Below are positions 21,361 to 31,528 of a stretch of DNA of 64,000 nucleotides, piece by piece. The position numbers were made by a program, and so were the translations under genes. Each line of letters begins with the position of its first letter. The first letter of the stretch is position 1. The notes below the pieces were generated by a model that was not told where the DNA came from, ran no database searches, and saw only the letters and a program-made list of their open reading frames with translations. The stretch comes from Euryarchaeota archaeon UBA103 (lineage in GTDB: Archaea; Thermoplasmatota; Poseidoniia; Poseidoniales; Thalassarchaeaceae): positions 92,905 to 156,904 of the forward strand of contig DAYH01000023.1 in the NCBI GenBank assembly GCA_002506825.1. The letters are read 5' to 3'.

Positions 21361-22385
21361 TGCGCAAGACTGTAAGACATGAGCGCGACGGGCCATTGAT
21401 TAGAATGGCACCTATTGGAATCATCGGAGTTGGCTCATACGTTCCACCCCGTGAAATGAGTAATGATGATTGGGCAGAAATCGTGGATACCAGTGACGAG
21501 TGGATTACTACCAAGACTGGTATGAAAAAAAGAAGGATTGCAGACTCTACTATGTGTACGTCTGACTTAGCCGTAGAGGCCTGCAGAGTGGCATTAGATA
21601 ATTCTGGACTGAAGGCGTCTGATATCGATTTGATTATACTGGCAACATCTTCTCCTGATGTCCCTATGTCTTCAACGGCTGGAATAGTTCAGCATAAGCT
21701 AGGTTGTACGGATTGTGTTGCTTTTGACGTCAATGCGGTATGTGCTGGTTGGGTTCATGCGCTGGATATAGGATCCAGATTTGCAGGAACAGAGGGGTAT
21801 GGAAACGTACTAGTTGTTGGATCCGAGGTATACTCTAGAATCCTGAATTGGGAAGATCGTTCTACTTGTGTACTATTTGGAGATGGTGCAGGGGCCGTGG
21901 TACTTTCCCAGGTCCCAGAGGGGAAGGGAATTATTGGATCATGGATGATGAGTGATGGCTCTGGATCCAGCGTTATTGAGATTCCTGCAGGAGGGGTCAG
22001 GATTCCGATCCCTAGTGAAGGTTTCAAAGATGGAATGCAATACTTTCACATGGACGGGAGGGCCGTTTGGGACTTTGCAATCGAGGCGTTTCCTCAAGCG
22101 GTATTATCAGTTCTCGAAAGATATGGAAAAACTATAGATGAAGTTGATCTTATTGTACCTCATCAGGCCAACATAAATATCATTGAGAAGGGGATGGAGA
22201 AGCTAGGACTCCCCATGGACAGAACGTTCACGAATCTCCATAAGTATGGAAATACGGCGGGGGCGAGTGTCCCTATTGCAATGCATGAGGCATTCGAAGA
22301 AATGAAGATCGTAGAAGGGGACCTGGTCGTCACCGTTGCATTTGGTGGTGGCTTGGCATGGGGCGCTAATCTCATTCAGTTCTAA
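21360..22385 (+). CDS. 3-oxoacyl-ACP synthase III (KAS III / FabH-like) condensing enzyme
   Basis: Cys-His-Asn triad motifs are present: NAVCAGWVHAL, VPHQANINII and YGNTAGASVPIAM. Possible starts are ATG 21360 (overlapping the ALDH stop), 21342 or 21405. Confidence 0.8.
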   Translation: MRKTVRHERDGPLIRMAPIGIIGVGSYVPPREMSNDDWAEIVDTSDEWITTKTGMKKRRIADSTMCTSDLAVEACRVALDNSGLKASDIDLIILATSSPDVPMSSTAGIVQHKLGCTDCVAFDVNAVCAGWVHALDIGSRFAGTEGYGNVLVVGSEVYSRILNWEDRSTCVLFGDGAGAVVLSQVPEGKGIIGSWMMSDGSGSSVIEIPAGGVRIPIPSEGFKDGMQYFHMDGRAVWDFAIEAFPQAVLSVLERYGKTIDEVDLIVPHQANINIIEKGMEKLGLPMDRTFTNLHKYGNTAGASVPIAMHEAFEEMKIVEGDLVVTVAFGGGLAWGANLIQF

Positions 22386-25300
22386 TTGACAGGGCCCCAA
22401 GAGCCGGTAGACTGGTTGAAAGAGAGGATTGAACCATCTGGATTCTGACAGTACACATTGCCCGTATTATCGACCCAAACAAGTTGCCCGTTTTCATTCA
22501 TCTTAGCATCACTGGGAGGCTTAATTGACTCTATTCTTCTTTCTTCTGGCTGAGGGGATGTAGAGATGGGGACTGAAACATTTGAGTATATTGTAGACTC
22601 ATTTCTTACCATACCAGAATCATCTGATTGAGAGAATAATGACTGATCATTTTCCCCTCTCCCCCTCACAAAGAGCAGTCCTCCGAGGGCGCCTATCACT
22701 ACGACAGAAACTAGTGCCGTGAAAATAAGCATTGTTGTTGATTCCTCGGCTACTTGTCTGTCAGGATCGTTTGGGAATGCATCTCCGTTGTCTCCTACGC
22801 CATCTAGGTCTGAGTCTTCCCACTCAAATGGATCTAGGGGGAAGTCATCTACGCCGTCCATGAATCCATCATCATCAGAATCTGGATCGGTAGCACTTGT
22901 ATTTCTTGCATCTTCCTCCATATCGGACGAGCCATCATTGTCATCATCAGTATCCGAGTTATCCCCTATGCCGTCCATGTCATTATCATTCCACTCGGTC
23001 GAATCTAGAGGGAGGTCGTCTTGCAAATCTGGGAATCCATCATTGTCATCGTCATCGTCCTCTTCTGAATCCTTACAGCCATCTAGATCATTGTCGATAT
23101 CTACTGTGCTGGCCCACCCAACTAAGCCTATTGGACATCTATCGAAGATATCATCAATTCCATCTCCATCATCGTCCAAATCCACTTCATCATGGAGCCT
23201 ATCCCCATCTGAGTCGAGAAGGCAATCATCCGCTGATGTAGAAGATTCTTGCAGGGTAATCATATCTTCAGGACATTTTTCTGTAGCTATACTTCGTGTC
23301 GATGGTACGAACTCATCGAGTGGAGCGGGCGTCTGCTGGGCCTGTCCTTGTTCAGATACGAAGAATCCTATGTCTGCATCTATGCAAGTTGATTGGCCTG
23401 GGGATGGCTGGAAAGTTCCCGGCAGACATTCTTCTTGTGAAACAGATGCTTCGGATGAAGTGAAGAACCCTGGGCTTGCATCTAGGCAGGCTGATTGCCC
23501 TGGAGTTGGCTGATAAGTTCCAGGCACGCATGGATTCTGATTGTTAGAGCCTTCAGAGAGTGTGTAGTAGCCCGGTTCGGTCAGCATGCAGGATATCTGT
23601 CTTGTCTGATTCTGGTAGCTCCCTGGCATACACGGAGTCTGCTCGGAAGAACCGGAAGAGTCGGCATAGTATCCCTCTTCTGAGTCCAAGCAAGCTGATT
23701 GGCTTGTTGCGGATTCATCCGGGTTGTAAGTTCCCGCGGGACATGGATTTTGGGAAGTGGACATTTCTGAGTCTACATAGAAGCCAGAATCCGCATTGAT
23801 GCAATTTTGCTGGCCGGGCGAAGGCTGATATTCTCCTATCTGACATTCTTCTTGGCTATCTTCGCCTGATAATTCGACGAAGTGTCCGGGATCTGCCTGC
23901 AAGCATGATTCTTGTCCAGCATACGGCTGATAGTCTCCCGGAGAGCATGGAGTCTGGTACGAAGCTCCGAGAATTGCCGAGTAGTTCCCTGGATCGGCTT
24001 CTAGACAAGCGGTAGAGCTGTTTGCCCCAGATACTGGGTTATAGCTTCCAGAGGAGCATGGAATCTGTGTAGATGATGCATTGCTATCTGTGTAGAACCC
24101 GGGACTGGCCTCTAGACATTCGGTGAGTCCAGCCTGATTAGCCCAATAACCAGGGAGGCAGGGAGAAGGCGATGTAGCTCCTCCTGAGTCGATATAGTAG
24201 CCTGGTGGCGCTGGAGTGCAAGAAGTCTGCCCAGACATAGATTGGTAGAATCCGGAAGTACAGGGGGTCTGGTAGGAGGAGCCATTGCTAGGGACGGCAT
24301 GCCCGGGGTCTGCATCTAAGCAAGACTGAGAGCTATTGGCCGCATCTGATGGATTGTAGGTACCAGCTGAGCAGGGAGTCTGAGTAGTAGAGCCAGGCTG
24401 CTCTACGTAGTATCCCGGATACGCGTCGATACACTCTGTTGCCATGTAAGAAGACTGGAATGTTCCAGGCTGGCACGGAGTTTGTGATGAAGACGCATTC
24501 GATGGGACGTAGTTACCAGGGGTCGCCTGCAGACACAGTGTCTGATTCGAAGATGGCTGATAGAAACCGGGATCGCAGGCTATCTGTGAGATGCTTGCAA
24601 TTCCGGGCACATAATGCCCCGGAGATGACGATAGACAGGATTGCTGAGCAGACAGTGGCTGGTAATATCCCGGATCGCAGGGGATTTGGGATGTCGAGCT
24701 GTAGTTAGGAACATGATGTCCGGAAGAGGCGTCAATACAGGAGGTAGAGCCATTAGAAGGCTGATATGTTCCCGGTGAGCAAGCAGTTTGGTTAGAAGAC
24801 CCAGAGGTCACGACATAGTTCCCAGCAGACGCGACGATACATGCCACCTGTGCAAATGAAGACTGGTAGTTTCCTGGGCTGCATTGTGTTTGGGAAGTTG
24901 CTCCTGGTTGAGGAACGTAGTTACCAGGGGAAGATGGAGTCTGGAAAGAGGACCCGCTCAGGGATACAAAGTAACCCTGACTAGCCTGCATACATGAAAT
25001 TTGACCGGATAGAGGCTGGTACGATCCAGGGGCACACATATCCTCAGAAGTTGCTCCGACTGAGGAGACATACCTTCCGGGGGAGGCGTTATCGCATGAA
25101 CCGCTACCAGTTTTTCCCTGATAAGTTCCTGGCTGGCACTGGAAGAATCCGACTTGTATCTCTGCGTCGATTGACTCTGTTTGATTACCGATGGCCGAGT
25201 TGTCGAGAGTTGATTTTAGAGTAAGTGTGAAACTATAATTCCCAGAGCTTGAGTTATTAGGGGTAACTGAAATAAGTAATGACGAAGCATTCGTGAAGGA

Positions 25301-27613
25301 TGTTCCAATGGTACTTACGCTTGCTACATTTCCTCCCTGTGAAGAGTTATCTGATGTGGAAATCAGGGACATGGCCATTGAGGAGTCGTAGTAGTACAAG
25401 CTAACGCTAAAGTCCCCATTCGAGGATGAGTTAGTGAGACTAACTGAGACGGTAGTATCTCTCGGAACGAATATCGAGAATAAGTCGCCGGAGTCATTGG
25501 ACCATGAGTAGTTCCCAATTTGTCCGCCATAGGTGGCACTCCTAGACTGAAGCGGAGTGGGGGATACATCATCCGCATCGCCGTATTGGTTGTTCGTATA
25601 ATTTCCTGCGGGGGAGGGGGTGCATGATGACTGTGCGAGGTCATTCTGATAGAAACCAGGAGCACAATGATACTGGCCGGGAGATGCTTCTTCATCGACG
25701 TAATACCCACTTGATGCCTCGTAGCAAATAGTTCGCCCCTCATCGGGTTGGTAGTTTCCTATTGTACAGCTTTCATGGAAAAGGGAGCCTTGTAAAGAGA
25801 AGTGGCCAGAGGATGAGTTCTGACATGATAATCGCCCCCATTGACCGTCTGGACAGCTTACCCATCTAGCTGGATTATTTGGAAAATCATCTATTGATGA
25901 GTTAAACCCGTCCCCATCGCTGTCGTCACTGATGGCCAAATCCAAAACATTACGAATTCCGTCTCCATCAAGATCCTGTTCAGAGTATGCAACTGATTCC
26001 CCAAGAGTGGAGTTATTGAAGTCCATCAGATATGGCACGAGGATATCATTTGAGGACCCATCAAATTCTCCGGACTGACTTCCCCAACAGAACAGGGAGT
26101 AGCTCTGATTTATCGCACATGTGGATTCAATGCCAGTTGCTAATGCTATCGCTGGAGATGGCATGAGGGCGTATGAGGGAACGTTCCCGTCCGTTCCTGA
26201 GCAACTGCTGGAACTGGAGCTACAGGTCCCATCCCCCCACTGTCCATGAGTATTGACTCCCCAGCAACTAATTGACCCATTGTCCAACAAGGCACATGTG
26301 TGCCATCTAGTGCCATCAATATCGGATGCTGTCCTACCATTTGGCAACTGAATATCAGATGATGAACCTGTTACTGGGCCATTCTGAGCGGAAACTGTGT
26401 AGGTCTTACCCCAGCAACTGATCGACCCGTTATCGAATATAGCACATACGCTATATCCCGGAGTTACCAATGAGGATGCCCTAAGGCCCGTTGAGTGATT
26501 AGCCAACACTGGTGAGTTTCTACTGGTCGTAGTGCCATCGCCTAGATTTCCGAAACCATTGAATCCCCAACACTTGATTTCACCAGTATCTAGGATTGCA
26601 CAGGTGAAATCATTACCTGCTGAAACAGAAATTGCTGTTCTATTTACTCCCAGGTCAACTGCTACAGGAGAGTTTCTGTTAACATTTGAGCTATCTCCTA
26701 TTTGACCGTGATTATTCCTTCCCCAGCAATTGAGCGATGCATCGTCCAGAATTGCACAATTATGGTAGTTCCCATTTGAAATAGCAACAGGAGTCCGAGT
26801 TCCGAAGTCGACAGTCCCATTACTTAGGGAGTTTAAGCCGATTCCTAGTTGGCCATAGTTGTTTGCTCCACTGCACCTAAGGGTCCTGTTGTACAGAATT
26901 GTACAGTCTCCTGCGCTTGAAATTACTTCGTCATTGGTGACTACTGGAGCCCCTGTACTATTGAAAGTCACTAGGCTTCCATTGGATAGGACAAGTGTAG
27001 GGGAGCCAGTATCCAAGTCTAGAACTGAGTGACTGAAGACAGAGCCCCTATCTGATCCTGGTTGATTGAAACCCAGGTTATTTACAGGAGTTGGTGTTGG
27101 TGATGACGATACCTCGCTAAGTGTCCATGAGTCGGCCCCCCATGAGTCTCCAGAGGTCCCTCCATTGCCATTAACTAGGTTTACAGCCAGATAGAATACT
27201 ACGTCTCCAGAACCTGTCGGAGGGGCTGTCCAATCAACTGACCATGCCCTGGAATTAGAGTTCGTATGGGTTACCTCGCCTAAGGAAATCTGAGCATTCG
27301 GCCCTGGATTAGAGAAAACACCCTGGCTGGAGTCCAGATTGAATCCTCCAGTAGTGCCGCTTGGCCCTCCAGAAGCGCTTATTGAAAGAGAATATGTGAT
27401 ACCTGCGGCATAGCCAGATGAGGGAGTACCCGATAGAGAGGGAGTGACAGTTGGAGTGGTCGAGGAATGGCATGAGCCAGCCCCGCAACCATCTGTAGAA
27501 CCGGTTCGTCCAGAGCTGTTCGCGAATGCGGTATCTGGGACAGCCATTAGCAAAAGCATCAGAAAGGTTCCCACAATAATTATTCTAGTTTTCATACTAC
27601 TCTCGTCCACCAT
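22382..27613 (-). CDS. Giant (1743 aa) mosaic surface protein built from many domain types (order given in the evidence)
   Basis: Domain order: signal peptide, reeler-like CX4CH domain, RCC1 propeller, TSP3 repeats, Cys-pair (ephrin-receptor-like) repeats, PPC-like domain, 17 more Cys-pair repeats, acidic TSP3 block, TM helix and cytoplasmic tail. Supporting motifs: signal peptide MKTRIIIVGTFLMLLLMAVPDTAFA; W..WTAP..G.V.F reeler-like pattern; six NxxGQLG/CWG blades; DDDGDGIDDIFDRCP type-3 repeats; TM LIFTALVSVVVIGALGGLLFV. Confidence 0.85.
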   Translation of the reverse strand: MVDESSMKTRIIIVGTFLMLLLMAVPDTAFANSSGRTGSTDGCGAGSCHSSTTPTVTPSLSGTPSSGYAAGITYSLSISASGGPSGTTGGFNLDSSQGVFSNPGPNAQISLGEVTHTNSNSRAWSVDWTAPPTGSGDVVFYLAVNLVNGNGGTSGDSWGADSWTLSEVSSSPTPTPVNNLGFNQPGSDRGSVFSHSVLDLDTGSPTLVLSNGSLVTFNSTGAPVVTNDEVISSAGDCTILYNRTLRCSGANNYGQLGIGLNSLSNGTVDFGTRTPVAISNGNYHNCAILDDASLNCWGRNNHGQIGDSSNVNRNSPVAVDLGVNRTAISVSAGNDFTCAILDTGEIKCWGFNGFGNLGDGTTTSRNSPVLANHSTGLRASSLVTPGYSVCAIFDNGSISCWGKTYTVSAQNGPVTGSSSDIQLPNGRTASDIDGTRWHTCALLDNGSISCWGVNTHGQWGDGTCSSSSSSCSGTDGNVPSYALMPSPAIALATGIESTCAINQSYSLFCWGSQSGEFDGSSNDILVPYLMDFNNSTLGESVAYSEQDLDGDGIRNVLDLAISDDSDGDGFNSSIDDFPNNPARWVSCPDGQWGRLSCQNSSSGHFSLQGSLFHESCTIGNYQPDEGRTICYEASSGYYVDEEASPGQYHCAPGFYQNDLAQSSCTPSPAGNYTNNQYGDADDVSPTPLQSRSATYGGQIGNYSWSNDSGDLFSIFVPRDTTVSVSLTNSSSNGDFSVSLYYYDSSMAMSLISTSDNSSQGGNVASVSTIGTSFTNASSLLISVTPNNSSSGNYSFTLTLKSTLDNSAIGNQTESIDAEIQVGFFQCQPGTYQGKTGSGSCDNASPGRYVSSVGATSEDMCAPGSYQPLSGQISCMQASQGYFVSLSGSSFQTPSSPGNYVPQPGATSQTQCSPGNYQSSFAQVACIVASAGNYVVTSGSSNQTACSPGTYQPSNGSTSCIDASSGHHVPNYSSTSQIPCDPGYYQPLSAQQSCLSSSPGHYVPGIASISQIACDPGFYQPSSNQTLCLQATPGNYVPSNASSSQTPCQPGTFQSSYMATECIDAYPGYYVEQPGSTTQTPCSAGTYNPSDAANSSQSCLDADPGHAVPSNGSSYQTPCTSGFYQSMSGQTSCTPAPPGYYIDSGGATSPSPCLPGYWANQAGLTECLEASPGFYTDSNASSTQIPCSSGSYNPVSGANSSTACLEADPGNYSAILGASYQTPCSPGDYQPYAGQESCLQADPGHFVELSGEDSQEECQIGEYQPSPGQQNCINADSGFYVDSEMSTSQNPCPAGTYNPDESATSQSACLDSEEGYYADSSGSSEQTPCMPGSYQNQTRQISCMLTEPGYYTLSEGSNNQNPCVPGTYQPTPGQSACLDASPGFFTSSEASVSQEECLPGTFQPSPGQSTCIDADIGFFVSEQGQAQQTPAPLDEFVPSTRSIATEKCPEDMITLQESSTSADDCLLDSDGDRLHDEVDLDDDGDGIDDIFDRCPIGLVGWASTVDIDNDLDGCKDSEEDDDDDNDGFPDLQDDLPLDSTEWNDNDMDGIGDNSDTDDDNDGSSDMEEDARNTSATDPDSDDDGFMDGVDDFPLDPFEWEDSDLDGVGDNGDAFPNDPDRQVAEESTTMLIFTALVSVVVIGALGGLLFVRGRGENDQSLFSQSDDSGMVRNESTIYSNVSVPISTSPQPEERRIESIKPPSDAKMNENGQLVWVDNTGNVYCQNPDGSILSFNQSTGSWGPVN
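23330..25138 (-). repeat. About 17 tandem 34-37-aa units, C-x-PG-x-Y-Q-x(5-8)-C-x(3,4)-PG-x-Y-V-x(9-11) (coding repeat, roughly 102-111 nt period)
   Basis: The first Cys of successive units falls at aa 826, 860, (894 degenerate), 911, 945, 979, 1013, 1047, 1081, 1118, 1152, 1186, 1223, 1257, 1291, 1328, 1362 and 1396. Each has a second Cys at +14 or +17. Three similar units lie at aa 587-675 (25589..25855). Confidence 0.8.
26069..26941 (-). repeat. RCC1/BLIP-II-like beta-propeller repeats (6-7 blades, about 50-aa period)
   Basis: Blade motifs are CSGANNYGQLGIG, CWGRNNHGQIGDS, CWGFNGFGNLGDG, CWGKTY, CWGVNTHGQWGDG and CWGSQSGEFDGS. Each is preceded by C(A/T)IL.D. Confidence 0.75.
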
Positions 27614-27730: not shown

Positions 27731-29554
27731 TCAGTGCGTCGTTACGAATACCTCTGAAGCTAGCGGGGGCATTTTAACTCCAGCTTCCGAGAATGCCTCT
27801 TCTACGGATTTGAAACTTCCTCGATTCTTGTTCATTCTTCTAGCTCTGTTACTGATGATCTTCCATGACGCCTTGTCTCCAATTCCAGGCAGTGCCTGAA
27901 GCTGACTCTTTGTAGCAGAATTGATATCTAGGCCGCACTCTACTCCAGAAATACTCCTCATCCCGTGTCCTGTAACTATGATATCAGAGCCCGATTCTAG
28001 TGGAACTGCATATGGGACCCCCACTAGTATAGGATATGCCCCTATCTGTCTCCCAAACGTAATACCTGGGTCACCGTGTATGTCAGAGTTCCTGTAATTT
28101 TCATCCGATACATGCTCGGGAAGCCTTATTCTGCCACCTCTAGACTCCCACCAAATATCCTTCAATTTGGTACCCAAAGGGAGTATCTCCTCGAGCATGG
28201 GTTGATCGATTTCTTCTCTGACCGTAGTTTTGAATTTCCTGAATTCGTTTTCGGGAATCTCTTGGAATCCCTTTCCCTCTACTTGACGAATATTTATCCT
28301 TCTTAGCCACAATCCCTCTGATTTCAACTCATTAAGAAGATTGATATTCATTTCATATGTACGCTCAGTCTCCCCATTAAGTCCCGCGATAAAGTTCAGA
28401 CCGGGGAGTAGTTTTGGGAGACCCCTTGGCCCTCTCTCCCTTCCATATTCGTTTATGTGCCTGATGGCTATCTTCAATTGATCTGAGTCACAATTCAGCC
28501 AATTAGAGTCGTGTACTTTCGGATCTGCTGATTCTAGGCCGAACGAAAGTACGGCTCCATCCGATAGATTCTCAACCAGGGATTTAGTTATCTCCGTAGA
28601 TGGCTCAATATTTTGAGCGACTATCGAAGGATTGGCATTGTCGACATGGAGAATTTGTAGACTTTCATTATTTCTCGCACCTTGCAGTACCTTGGAGATT
28701 GGCTCTGGATCGGGGATAGGGTATTCCAGTTCCTCTACCCCTTCCGCCCTGTAGGTATAGATATCCGTGGCTCCACCTATTCTGACGTTGACGATTCCAG
28801 ATTCCACAGCGGCATTGATTTCATTGATAACATCGTCTTCTTCCCTCCACAGTGGAAGGCCTTTCTTGGGCTCAATACAGAATTTACAACCTCTCTTAAA
28901 CCGGACGCAGCCCTGATACAGTTCCACCTCATACGTTAGAGGGCCATTGGATCCATTTGGAGATAATAGATCGGGGTGATCCACTACTGCCTTTGACGAG
29001 GCTCCCCTGAGTGCCCATCTTGACCATTCATCCGGGCTCCTTTTCTTATGATTCATATTTCCTGTAGAAAGGAAATGATTGAGAGTTGCATCTACATCCT
29101 TCAAGCTACAGAAGAGGTTTGCTCTGGGAGAAACCCATCCCGATTGCCTCCAGTGCCTAATTGCCCATCCCCCACAGATAACTGGGATTCTATTTGGAAT
29201 CGAGGATAGGAACGAGTCCGTCTCGCGTCTGCTGATTGGTGTCCCTCTGATATACTTCCCAGGAACCACTGCTCCAGCTAGAAGAATCGCTCCATCCAGT
29301 TCACTCATTTGCTCCCTTACAGATTTACGCCCATCATAGGTCGAGAGTGCAGATTTGAATGATCTTCTCCATTGATCGACGGTCATGTAGGTGTATTCTA
29401 TTCCCCTCTCCTCCAGAACACCACAGATGTATCTAATGTGGAATCCAACATAATTTGGAACGCCGAAAGCCGCGGGTTCATCCTCGTACCCATCTAGGAC
29501 GAGCCATCCGTCTAGCTTTTCCATGTGCCAACGGCTAGGGTATTCGGTATTCAC
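27731..29554 (-). CDS. Radical SAM-type Fe-S enzyme with a B12-binding-like N-terminal region and a C-terminal helix-hairpin-helix
   Basis: Cys cluster YQGCVRFKRGCKFCIEP (CX6CX2C). The TIM-barrel-like core includes GLESADP and NFIAGLNGET. The C-terminal HhH is SQLQALPGIGDKASWKII. The start overlaps the csl4 stop by 4 nt. Confidence 0.6.
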   Translation of the reverse strand: MNTEYPSRWHMEKLDGWLVLDGYEDEPAAFGVPNYVGFHIRYICGVLEERGIEYTYMTVDQWRRSFKSALSTYDGRKSVREQMSELDGAILLAGAVVPGKYIRGTPISRRETDSFLSSIPNRIPVICGGWAIRHWRQSGWVSPRANLFCSLKDVDATLNHFLSTGNMNHKKRSPDEWSRWALRGASSKAVVDHPDLLSPNGSNGPLTYEVELYQGCVRFKRGCKFCIEPKKGLPLWREEDDVINEINAAVESGIVNVRIGGATDIYTYRAEGVEELEYPIPDPEPISKVLQGARNNESLQILHVDNANPSIVAQNIEPSTEITKSLVENLSDGAVLSFGLESADPKVHDSNWLNCDSDQLKIAIRHINEYGRERGPRGLPKLLPGLNFIAGLNGETERTYEMNINLLNELKSEGLWLRRINIRQVEGKGFQEIPENEFRKFKTTVREEIDQPMLEEILPLGTKLKDIWWESRGGRIRLPEHVSDENYRNSDIHGDPGITFGRQIGAYPILVGVPYAVPLESGSDIIVTGHGMRSISGVECGLDINSATKSQLQALPGIGDKASWKIISNRARRMNKNRGSFKSVEEAFSEAGVKMPPLASEVFVTTH

Positions 29555-30858
29555 CGCTTCGACTGTTTCCTTCGTCCGCCTCTATCCCTATTGGAGCCAC
29601 TGGGTGAAGACTCTTCGACTACAATCTTTCGGCCTTTAATTTCTGAACCGTTCATGGCCTTGATAGCCGCCTTTGCATCATCTTTAGAGGGGAAGGTGAC
29701 AAACGCAAATCCCTTTGACTTTCCAGAATCCCTATCCTTGGCGATGTGTATGGAGTCGATTTTTCCATGCTCTGAGAATGCTTTGGATAGTTCTTCCTCC
29801 GATATTTCGTAGGGGAGCCTTCCAACAAATAGTTTGACTCCCATTTTCTCCTCGAGCTTGCTCCTCATGGCAGATATTGTCTCCCTCTCTTTCGAAAGCT
29901 CTTCCTTGGTGGCCTTTCCCTGCTTGACCTTGTCCATACAGTCCCTACATCTTATTGGCTTGCCAGGAGTTGGTTTGAATGGCACCTTTGTTTTGACCCC
30001 ACACATCGTACAAACCGCTTCATGCATCTCCATTCTAGGTCTACTCTGACCACCCCTTCCGCCGCCACGGTTGGAGGATCTCATAGATGCCACCCTAGGT
30101 GGGATATCGTGATTAGCACCTCTTCGGAAGTCCGCCAAGGGAGAGAGGTATGGCCTGGCCCCATCGTGCCCTAGTTTCGCTTCTGCCTCAGGAGACCACC
30201 TTTCTCCAGACCTGTTGAGTTTGTGCAGACCGAATCCAGTTTCGTGACCATGGCCGAAGCCATCGGAGAGTACTCGATATGCAGTGTAGTCACATCTTGA
30301 GCAATCTACATTGAAATCGATTTTCTTGTCCGATACATCCAGCATTACTCCACACGTGGGACAAGATGCAGATAATACCCCTAAGGATGCGCCTCCCTTT
30401 GTTGAGGCCTTTAGAATGGGGTCGTCCTTGACTATTCTGGCTCTGACAATATCTCGCATCCTCATGGCATCACCAGGGGATGGAATGAATCTGTCAACGA
30501 CCTCTGAGACATGGATATCAGCGAACAACTGGAGGGCTGGAAGATTCCTATGCCCCCCTTGCCTGCTCTCGATATGTAAGATTCTAATCTCAGCGACATT
30601 CTCGTTCAATCTCGTTACCTGTCCAATCACTATATCATCAACAGAAGGAGAATTTATCGGCAACCTAGATGACTCAATGGAGATATTTCCATCATTCTCT
30701 ACGAGAGTTCCGGGGAGCGTGGCTATACACCTTCCATTTTTCTCAAAGATACCCTCTCCAACTGAAGATCCTGACGGAATAGATACTGTGGAACCGGGTG
30801 TAACTTGGTCACCAACTACGGCAGACATTGACTCGGCGACCGGCCGTTCCCCTATCAA
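29551..30858 (-). CDS. csl4: Exosome cap protein Csl4 fused to an RGG box, a CxxC-x17-CxxC zinc ribbon and an RRM domain
   Basis: aa 1-200: S1 barrel (IVIGQVTRLNENVAEIRI ... DIVRARIV) and the Csl4 zinc ribbon CPTCG...CSRC. aa 263-275: NRGGGRGGQSRPR. aa 283-307: CTMCGVKTKVPFKPTPGKPIRCRDC. aa 341-416: RRM with RNP2 LFVGRL and RNP1 KGFAFVTF. Confidence 0.8.
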   Translation of the reverse strand: MIGERPVAESMSAVVGDQVTPGSTVSIPSGSSVGEGIFEKNGRCIATLPGTLVENDGNISIESSRLPINSPSVDDIVIGQVTRLNENVAEIRILHIESRQGGHRNLPALQLFADIHVSEVVDRFIPSPGDAMRMRDIVRARIVKDDPILKASTKGGASLGVLSASCPTCGVMLDVSDKKIDFNVDCSRCDYTAYRVLSDGFGHGHETGFGLHKLNRSGERWSPEAEAKLGHDGARPYLSPLADFRRGANHDIPPRVASMRSSNRGGGRGGQSRPRMEMHEAVCTMCGVKTKVPFKPTPGKPIRCRDCMDKVKQGKATKEELSKERETISAMRSKLEEKMGVKLFVGRLPYEISEEELSKAFSEHGKIDSIHIAKDRDSGKSKGFAFVTFPSKDDAKAAIKAMNGSEIKGRKIVVEESSPSGSNRDRGGRRKQSKR

Positions 30859-30871
30859 CGGTACGGAGGAA

Positions 30872-31528
30872 CTAGGGGGGAACTAGTCTCCAGAATCCCG
30901 CCCTAGTGACTCCTCTGGACATCTTATGGTGAGAATATGAAGCTGGAAGGGGGAAGTCGGCTTCACCGTACTTCTCGGCCTTCCAGTTCATATCTTCGAA
31001 TCTTTTTTCAATATGTTTCGCATTGGCACTGTGCATGATGTGTGTGAGAGTATTGGAAACTAAGATATGTTCAAAAAAATCTGCATCCGCTCCCTCCTTT
31101 TGTCTCCCCCATGGGGGATTAGAAATTATTAGGTCGTATCCGCCTAATTCTAAATGATCCTTGCCTAATCGTCGATTACTCACTTCATATTCGTCATCCC
31201 TTAGTACGCTTTCAGCATTTACATCGGCTAGCTCGCATAATTCCTGATCGACCTCTACTAATTTGACAAAACCGGCCCCCATCATTACAGCGCCGATTCC
31301 GAGTATTCCATTTCCCGCCCCCAAATCCACTACTCTGCACCCGGGCGTAAGGTCCCCAAAAGACTGGATATCGAAAAGCCATCTCGATGCTAAATCCCCT
31401 GGTGTTACATACTGCTCCAAAGAGGCCACTAGATCTTCTTTTACGCCTAGTTTCGATAAGGACATCGCCAGTTTCCGTAGCCTCATCAGATGATGGGGGG
31501 CTCCCAGATAGTTATGCCTACCGGACAT
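30872..31528 (-). CDS. METTL5/COG2263-like N6-adenine RNA methyltransferase
   Basis: LEQYVTPGDLA, the SAM motif VVDLGAGNGILGIGA and the catalytic NPPWG tetrad are present. Confidence 0.7.
   Translation of the reverse strand: MSGRHNYLGAPHHLMRLRKLAMSLSKLGVKEDLVASLEQYVTPGDLASRWLFDIQSFGDLTPGCRVVDLGAGNGILGIGAVMMGAGFVKLVEVDQELCELADVNAESVLRDDEYEVSNRRLGKDHLELGGYDLIISNPPWGRQKEGADADFFEHILVSNTLTHIMHSANAKHIEKRFEDMNWKAEKYGEADFPLPASYSHHKMSRGVTRAGFWRLVPP

Follow-up and report, generated by a model that had tools for sequence, protein, structure and literature searches.

The specificity recognised so far in archaeal exosomes is provided by Rrp4 and, through Csl4, by DnaG, and to our knowledge the choice of substrates by these complexes is poorly understood. 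In Sulfolobus, DnaG joins the exosome only via Csl4 and supplies RNA (poly(A)) binding (PMC3672285). The N-terminal domain of Csl4 is described as the main anchor on the ring, and an RNA-binding domain fused to the C-terminus of S. solfataricus Csl4 was still assembled into the cap; the cap then took on the RNA preference of that domain, and degradation was faster than with DnaG supplied in trans (PMC4227792). Here we describe a gene in which RNA-binding-type domains are joined to Csl4 in nature. It lies in a stretch of 64,000 nucleotides, referred to as the window (contig DAYH01000023.1, positions 92,905 to 156,904), of Euryarchaeota archaeon UBA103, a member of the Thalassarchaeaceae in the order Poseidoniales, and is called the csl4 fusion below.

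The product of this gene is most likely the single Csl4 cap subunit of the exosome of Marine Group II (MGII, Poseidoniales), lengthened at its C-terminus by a conserved arm. We propose, with a probability of roughly 60%, that in this subunit the tethered RNA recognition motif (RRM), zinc ribbon and RGG modules would capture single-stranded RNA for the S1 pore, and that a conserved motif of the arm would dock on a partner.

The reading frame and its modules

The gene and the parts of its product are given below in window coordinates, with residues of the protein numbered in amino acids (aa) from the first codon of the open reading frame (ORF). Structure was predicted with AlphaFold2 (mean predicted local distance difference test score, pLDDT, 62.8; predicted template-modelling score, pTM, 0.31).

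29551..30858, minus strand: csl4-fusion ORF, 435 aa from a TTG codon, stop codon at 29551-29553
30247..30807, minus strand: canonical Csl4 core, aa 18-204, with N-terminal ring-anchor domain, S1 barrel and zinc ribbon
30091..30246, minus strand: conserved lineage-specific module, aa 205-256, LNRxGxRW..E..L.H.G.RPY.SP.AD.RRG..H, with invariant columns
30034..30075, minus strand: RGG box, aa 262-275, NRGGGRGGQSRPRM, read from the sequence and disordered in the AlphaFold2 model
29926..30030, minus strand: CxxC-x17-CxxC zinc ribbon of the treble-clef type, aa 277-311 (TIGR04272, PF23477)
29839..29925, minus strand: K/E-rich segment, aa 312-340, mostly one predicted helix at aa 318-339 (pLDDT ~84)
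29623..29832, minus strand: canonical RRM, aa 343-412 (PF00076), with RNP2 and RNP1
29554..29610, minus strand: basic RG-rich C-terminal tail, aa 417-435, SNRDRGGRRKQSKR, read from the sequence

A single uninterrupted frame of 435 aa spans the gene. Its real start is probably the ATG at nucleotide 30828 (M11), which would give a product of 425 aa, because M11 is kept without exception when 34 homologs are aligned, and most homologs have a length of 417-446 aa. Residues called invariant below are invariant across this 34-sequence alignment.

The csl4 fusion is one intact, transcribed and selected reading frame. A near-identical sequence was found in 19 marine metagenome runs belonging to nine studies. 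The region from 29300 to 31100 is covered by a 14.5-kb DNA contig of another study with four substitutions and no gaps, and two metatranscriptome contigs, 29809-30711 from run X24 and 29631-30401 from run X25, jointly cross every domain junction with no indels. Raw reads taken from about 3% of each of runs X20 and X21 gave no hit on the locus. Seven of the eight strain substitutions within the ORF are synonymous; the remaining one, M276R, falls in the spacer that separates the RGG box from the second ribbon. A protein search with the csl4 fusion retrieved 365 relatives, and the best 120 of them (clusters) covered 87-100% of the query at 55-91% identity, all of them with both RRM_1 and zf_Tbcl_2. 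A preliminary description of the window, made from the sequence alone, had allowed for a frameshift or chimera between csl4 and the RRM part; with junction-spanning DNA and RNA contigs free of indels and with conserved full-length homologs, that objection fails and the fusion is real. Every motif quoted in the same description was found where it had been placed in the gene, and its domain assignments hold, since NF034126, TIGR04272 and PF00076 all score above their curated cut-offs.

The core of the protein is that of a Csl4. It matches NF034126, the Csl4 equivalog of NCBIfam, with 97.5 bits (cut-off 90), aa 18-201 matching positions 2-178 of the 180 in the model, and aa 19-204 align to residues 4-177 of the 179 residues of Archaeoglobus fulgidus Csl4 (PDB 2BA1 chain A, E 1.8e-14). 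A profile search of the PDB with the N-terminal 262 aa returned one family only, A. fulgidus Csl4 (2BA1/3M7N/3M85); the same search with the full-length alignment was swamped by eukaryotic RRM proteins. The N-terminal ring-anchor domain and the S1 domain are conserved. The first zinc ribbon, C166-PT-C169 ... C186-SR-C189, keeps all four cysteines invariant, as are all eight cysteines of the two ribbons. A canonical Csl4 ends after this ribbon, at about 180-200 aa; here some 230 more residues follow, and the extension begins exactly at the end of the crystallised A. fulgidus protein. To judge from the sequence, the additional residues make a variant architecture and the assignment of the core to Csl4 stands.

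The arm formed by these residues comprises, in order, the conserved motif, the RGG box, the four-cysteine ribbon, a long helix, the RRM and the basic tail. Together with the Csl4 N-terminal domain, the second ribbon, the long helix and the RRM are the parts modelled with a pLDDT of about 75-85.

The residues that join the Csl4 ribbon to the RGG box had been taken for a plain linker, and this part of the earlier anatomy has to be revised, the domains themselves being correctly named: aa 198-250 are among the densest invariant runs of the protein. The invariant residues are L214, N215, R216, G218, R220, W221, E226, L229, H231, G233, R235, P236, Y237, S239, P240, A242, D243, R245, R246, G247 and H250. 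The motif at aa 205-256 is more conserved than most of the protein and is predicted to be disordered (pLDDT < 50). When 1.84 billion representative proteins were scanned in full with HMMER for matches to aa 195-262, only family members and their fragments were recovered; the remaining matches, to eukaryotic C2H2 fingers, a protein of tandem repeats and a chimeric fragment, were spurious. The combination of high conservation with the lack of an autonomous fold suggests a segment that folds on a partner, and we regard it as a candidate docking motif. Protein P0245 is a chimeric product of 219 aa in which a fragment of RmuC is joined to the conserved motif and ribbon.

The RGG stretch was boxed as aa 262-275, with NRGGGRGGQSRPR at aa 262-274, on a loose, composition-based definition of RGG/RG boxes. 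RGGGRGG is found at aa 263-269 and RGGRR in the C-terminal tail, both in segments with a pLDDT below 50 (aa 419-435 in the case of the tail). The family consensus of the box is GGRGGGRPRRE, with longer runs in relatives, and that of the tail is SGGR...RRRRR.

The second ribbon (aa 277-311) scores 49.7 bits with TIGR04272 (cut-off 36) and 48.3 bits with PF23477, zf_Tbcl_2 (cut-off 27). As had been counted earlier, exactly 17 residues (287-303) separate the cysteine pairs C283-TM-C286 and C304-RD-C307, whose four cysteines are invariant. It carries the signature VPFKPTPGKP, of which VPF.PTPGKP is invariant across the family alignment, and it is modelled with a pLDDT of about 85. Zinc binding has been measured by inductively coupled plasma mass spectrometry for small CxxC-x17-CxxC-family proteins of M. 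mazei only (PMC12704099). The K/E-rich helix that follows is likely a rigid spacer between ribbon and RRM, as far as the model goes.

The RRM matches RRM_1 (PF00076) with 86.5 bits (cut-off 20.7), aa 343-412 covering positions 1-69 of the 70 in the model. RNP2 (LFVGRL) lies at aa 343-348 and RNP1 (KGFAFVTF) at aa 382-389, and the RNP aromatic residues F344, F384 and F386 are invariant. The predicted fold is beta-alpha-beta-beta-alpha-beta with a pLDDT of about 83, the strands running over aa 341-346, 369-374, 381-389 and 413-416 and the helices over aa 354-362 and 392-402.

Distribution in Poseidoniales and relatives of the RRM

A survey of Csl4 architectures in Thermoplasmatota, proposed in the preliminary description, which had guessed this phylum correctly, was carried out by searching the csl4-fusion protein against 301 genomes of this phylum. 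It recovered the full layout within the window's own family, Thalassarchaeaceae (probably MGIIb), with a full-length match in 20 of the 22 sampled genomes; in the other two, one copy was cut at a contig end and one genome gave a weak match only. It also brought to light a sister layout that the description had missed. The sister family Poseidoniaceae (MGIIa), to which the CM001443 "MG-II chromosome" and Ca. Poseidonia alphae belong, lacks the CxxC-x17-CxxC ribbon; behind its Csl4 part come the LN..G.RW...AE motif, a spacer rich in RG, a tandem pair of RRMs and a basic tail. An MGIIa query matched 70 Poseidoniales loci (67-100% identity), and in about 63 of these the match took in essentially the whole length of the query. 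A third family of the order (f49) has the arrangement Csl4-linker-RRM-RRM, likewise without the ribbon. Most of the other short matches to ribbon and RRM lie on contigs of less than about 3 kb and are probably truncated.

The MGIIa/f49 variant shares with the window protein the Csl4 core, the LN..G.RW..AE motif after its ribbon, RG-rich spacers, the basic tail and the gene neighbourhood; it differs in carrying a second RRM in place of the CxxC-x17-CxxC ribbon and in the second half of the motif. The ribbon of MGIIb and the first RRM (RRM1) of MGIIa and f49 occupy the same position. In a cross-family alignment the first half of the motif, LN..G.RW...AE, is common to all three families, and because this motif after the Csl4 ribbon is shared, the comparison suggests that the C-terminal extension is older than the split of the Poseidoniales families. 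A sister order in the same class, which we infer to be MGIII-like, has a plain Csl4 ending just past the ribbon and a separate RRM ORF of about 100 aa. Most other Thermoplasmatota have a plain Csl4 of about 190-200 aa, often together with a separate RRM protein. A Csl4 bearing modules of the RNA-binding type thus appears, on sequence comparison, as an order-wide trait of Poseidoniales that comes in two alternative layouts.

RRM domains had been said to be scarce in archaea. This is so in model archaea, as RRM_1 was absent from the four included as controls, and it does not extend to Thermoplasmatota, where 51 of the 151 genomes sampled, belonging to 26 of 94 genera, have RRM_1, mostly in stand-alone ORFs of about 80-160 aa. 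MGIII and seven other families have stand-alone RRM ORFs of 80-158 aa. In MGII every RRM detected sits on Csl4: RRM_1 occurred once in each of the 10 sampled MGIIb genomes and twice in 14 of the 15 sampled MGIIa genomes, and all 38 of these matches fall in long, Csl4-sized frames whose positions are those of the Csl4 loci wherever both were listed. In the genome of the window itself, hidden Markov models cut from the family alignment for the RRM, the ribbon and the motif matched only the csl4-fusion gene.

The relationships of the RRMs were studied in a tree of 77 columns, which is weakly resolved (20 of 54 forks open). Stand-alone prokaryotic RRMs are 40-55% identical to the fused RRM. In the tree those of Thermoplasmatota, MGIII and bacteria group together (87/72) and the fused RRMs fall outside; the latter are not nested among the stand-alone RRMs of MGIII and Thermoplasmatota. 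RRM1 of MGIIa and f49 forms a cluster of its own (100/99). At one f49 locus (L015, G314:C1) the two Csl4 RRMs, instead of pairing with the MGIIa domains RRM1 and RRM2, are closest to each other (99/96), which suggests an independent duplication or gene conversion of the Csl4 RRMs in f49. Small stand-alone prokaryotic RRM proteins, for example of the NF058537 Rbp type, resemble the fused RRM in being canonical RRM_1 domains with both RNP1 and RNP2; unlike the csl4 fusion they are free proteins, and the tree does not show direct descent of one from the other.

Gene neighbourhood and exosome partners

The csl4 fusion is flanked on the same strand by two genes.

30872..31528, minus strand: small methyltransferase with an NPPW motif, METTL5/COG2263-like (Pfam MTS and Cons_hypoth95), directly upstream of csl4
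27731..29554, minus strand: radical-SAM/HhH protein of 607 aa (Pfam Radical_SAM and HHH_3), downstream, overlapping the csl4 stop by 4 nucleotides

The motif stretch of the methyltransferase reads IISNPPWGRQ, and asd adjoins this gene on its upstream side. The radical-SAM/HhH protein has a non-canonical cluster motif, GCVRFKRGCKFC (Cx6Cx2C). An RNA contig (29303-29811) crosses the junction between csl4 and the radical-SAM gene, and the two are probably co-transcribed. The MGIIa and MGIIb loci examined share the co-oriented order asd, methyltransferase, csl4 and radical-SAM gene, and in the shorter f49 locus the methyltransferase and radical-SAM genes flank csl4.

Other genes near these loci were recorded. 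A small double-CxxC zinc-ribbon protein (MGFC.xCGQ…FCRFCG…QPGEQL…) is encoded in MGIIa, and in a single MGIIb genome, close to the methylase-csl4 cluster (L001 at ~3.4-3.6 kb, L003 259-603, L004 311-556 and L009 72-401). In the window, positions 22382-27613 on the minus strand encode a predicted surface protein of 1743 aa that starts with a signal-like segment at its N-terminus and ends in a membrane anchor; it contains many cysteine-containing repeats of about 35 aa (…G.YQ…GQ.SC…) and D-rich acidic repeats resembling calcium-binding repeats.

The genome to which the window belongs (83% complete) keeps an Rrp4-Rrp41-Rrp42 operon on its contig C9, and no second Csl4 and no second RRM were found in it besides the fusion. 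A bacterial-type RNase PH is encoded at C10:4332-4721 in addition to Rrp41 and Rrp42 (TIGR01966, 236 bits, cut-off 141.5). This third gene with an RNase PH domain is also present in 19 of the 20 MGII relatives searched, so that MGII, by their gene content, hold both an exosome and a bacterial-type RNase PH.

An archaeal DnaG is encoded at C14:3028-3858 (NF003108, 350.9 bits, cut-off 300). The DnaG proteins of MGII are the most divergent of the phylum, with 319-352 bits against about 430-549 elsewhere, and the NCBIfam model aligns to them only over positions 1 to ~280. A direct alignment showed that the core of the C-terminal domain is kept and that the missing part is mostly a long low-complexity spacer before that domain. 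The divergence of DnaG in MGII coincides with the extension of Csl4, but as a single evolutionary event. We considered that the arm might replace DnaG; this was not supported, the C-terminal core being retained and mainly a low-complexity spacer being absent in the direct alignment.

Proposed role of the arm and comparison with known systems

In the mechanism that we propose, the N-terminal domain would anchor the fusion on the Rrp41/Rrp42 ring as in other archaea, and a flexible tether would connect the arm with the peripheral zinc-ribbon domain. Single-stranded RNA would be caught by the RRM, the ribbon and the RGG stretches and so become locally enriched at the S1 pore, and in this way the arm may shape which RNAs are degraded or tailed. 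A change in substrate recruitment, already suggested in the preliminary description, is plausible, with a precedent in the experiments on S. solfataricus Csl4 (PMC4227792). The motif at aa 205-256 would fold on a partner; candidates for it are the exosome itself, DnaG and other RNA-processing factors.

Several points speak against this proposal. We infer both cap assembly and RNA binding for every member of the family, and RRMs are also able to mediate protein-protein contacts. With no known homolog of the motif, the partner of aa 205-256 is a guess. The AlphaFold2 model is of moderate quality only, with a pLDDT below 50 for the S1 loop at aa 103-131 and for aa 191-275. The metatranscriptome contigs and libraries from which transcription was deduced may hold some contaminating DNA. 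The conserved methyltransferase and radical-SAM neighbours would also fit a role in rRNA or tRNA maturation rather than in general decay.

An alternative is that the arm is a module chiefly for protein interaction or regulation. The motif, possibly together with the RRM, would then dock DnaG, a helicase or aRNase J, or would fold back and gate the pore, instead of directly recruiting RNA substrates. A segment that is conserved above most of the protein and yet predicted to be disordered is typical of folding on binding, the divergence of MGII DnaG hints at a changed interface, and DnaG of Sulfolobus binds the exosome only through Csl4 (PMC3672285). We nevertheless consider such a module unlikely as the main function. 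The RNP1 and RNP2 aromatic residues are invariant, as expected of an RRM that binds RNA, and binding to nucleic acids is typical of RGG stretches and basic tails. As for DnaG, its retained C-terminal core gives no sign of a lost or replaced interface, and its divergence coincides with the fusion in one clade only.

Still less probable, in our opinion, is a job of the RRM arm apart from the exosome, for example as an RNA chaperone or stress RNA-binding protein, the arm being fused to Csl4 for co-expression or Csl4 itself working off the exosome. The stand-alone RRM proteins of about 80-160 aa in MGIII and in many Thermoplasmatota with a plain Csl4 do show that an RRM can act as a free protein. 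The genome, however, retains the complete operon for the exosome core, with the fusion as its sole Csl4. The ring-anchor domain and S1 domain of the fusion are conserved, the fusion has been kept in three families that differ in the layout of the arm, and the only split copy found is a frameshifted one.

This copy, on metagenomic contig L033, is also the one observation in favour of an assembly artefact (a frameshift, a chimera or two merged neighbouring genes), a reading to which we give practically no credence: the two ORFs of 233 and 154 aa are separated by a single frameshift inside the conserved motif, beyond which the other frame continues the protein exactly, and the independent DNA and RNA contigs, the best 120 of the 365 relatives and the ~63 MGIIa loci (one genome per species) all agree with the window frame. 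A natural two-gene form of csl4, as L033 might have represented, was rejected on account of the same frameshift. In the public assembly the frameshifted fusion (L033 1704-2965) is annotated as two genes.

The capture of RNA by a cap-tethered arm thus remains the reading we prefer, and it invites an extension that we offer as speculation, unlikely as it stands. By a Rosetta-stone argument, the stand-alone RRM proteins present in about a third of Thermoplasmatota, and perhaps those of bacteria, may be substrate adaptors acting in trans on exosomes or RNase PH-type enzymes, with aa 205-256 docking a DnaG or helicase partner. If true, archaea would possess a built-in adaptor system resembling the eukaryotic one.

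No description of the architecture was found among about 8.4 million full texts, searched for archaeal Csl4 in combination with RRM, for RRM in Marine Group II, for prokaryotic RRM and for the ribbon identifiers. In databases the proteins of this family are named "CxxC-x17-CxxC domain-containing protein" or "hypothetical protein", names that hide their identity as the Csl4 of these genomes and that the present analysis corrects. The subunit and the domain families are known; the order-wide architecture and the conserved motif appear to be new. MGII are among the most abundant planktonic archaea, and their Csl4 fusion offers a natural, testable case of substrate recruitment in cis. It also provides a functional lead for the little-studied prokaryotic RRM proteins, and a partner can now be sought for the new motif.

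Compared with canonical archaeal Csl4, such as A. fulgidus AF0206 (PDB 2BA1/3M7N/3M85; NF034126), the fusion has the N-terminal domain, the S1 barrel and the four-cysteine zinc ribbon, collinear with the 179-aa reference along its entire length. Like other canonical Csl4 proteins, that of the MGIII sister order ends right past the ribbon, whereas the fusion adds the motif, the RGG box, the second ribbon, the helix, the RRM and the tail.

In eukaryotes, NEXT consists of the RRM protein RBM7, the zinc-knuckle protein ZCCHC8 and MTR4, and TRAMP contains the zinc-knuckle proteins Air1/2; both complexes are centred on a helicase and built of separate proteins. Only the logic would be shared with the MGII arm, namely an RRM and a zinc module that select RNAs for the exosome; the eukaryotic adaptors are not known to be related to the arm in sequence, and no homology is claimed. 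The eukaryotic adaptors act in trans, whereas the MGII modules are fused in cis to a cap subunit.

Archaeal DnaG (PMC3672285, PMC4227792) resembles the arm in that an additional RNA-binding surface is placed on the cap through Csl4. It is a separate polypeptide acting in trans, and MGII still encode it, so that the arm would add to DnaG. The closest parallel is the engineered S. solfataricus Csl4-NT, in which the RNA-binding N-terminal domain of DnaG was attached to Csl4 (PMC4227792): as in the fusion, an RNA-binding module is carried on the C-terminus of a full-length Csl4. Csl4-NT is a laboratory construct with an unrelated RNA-binding domain, whereas the MGII arm is natural, longer and multi-modular. 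By analogy, the MGII Csl4 fusion may be regarded as the natural counterpart of this construct, and we propose for it the same mechanism.

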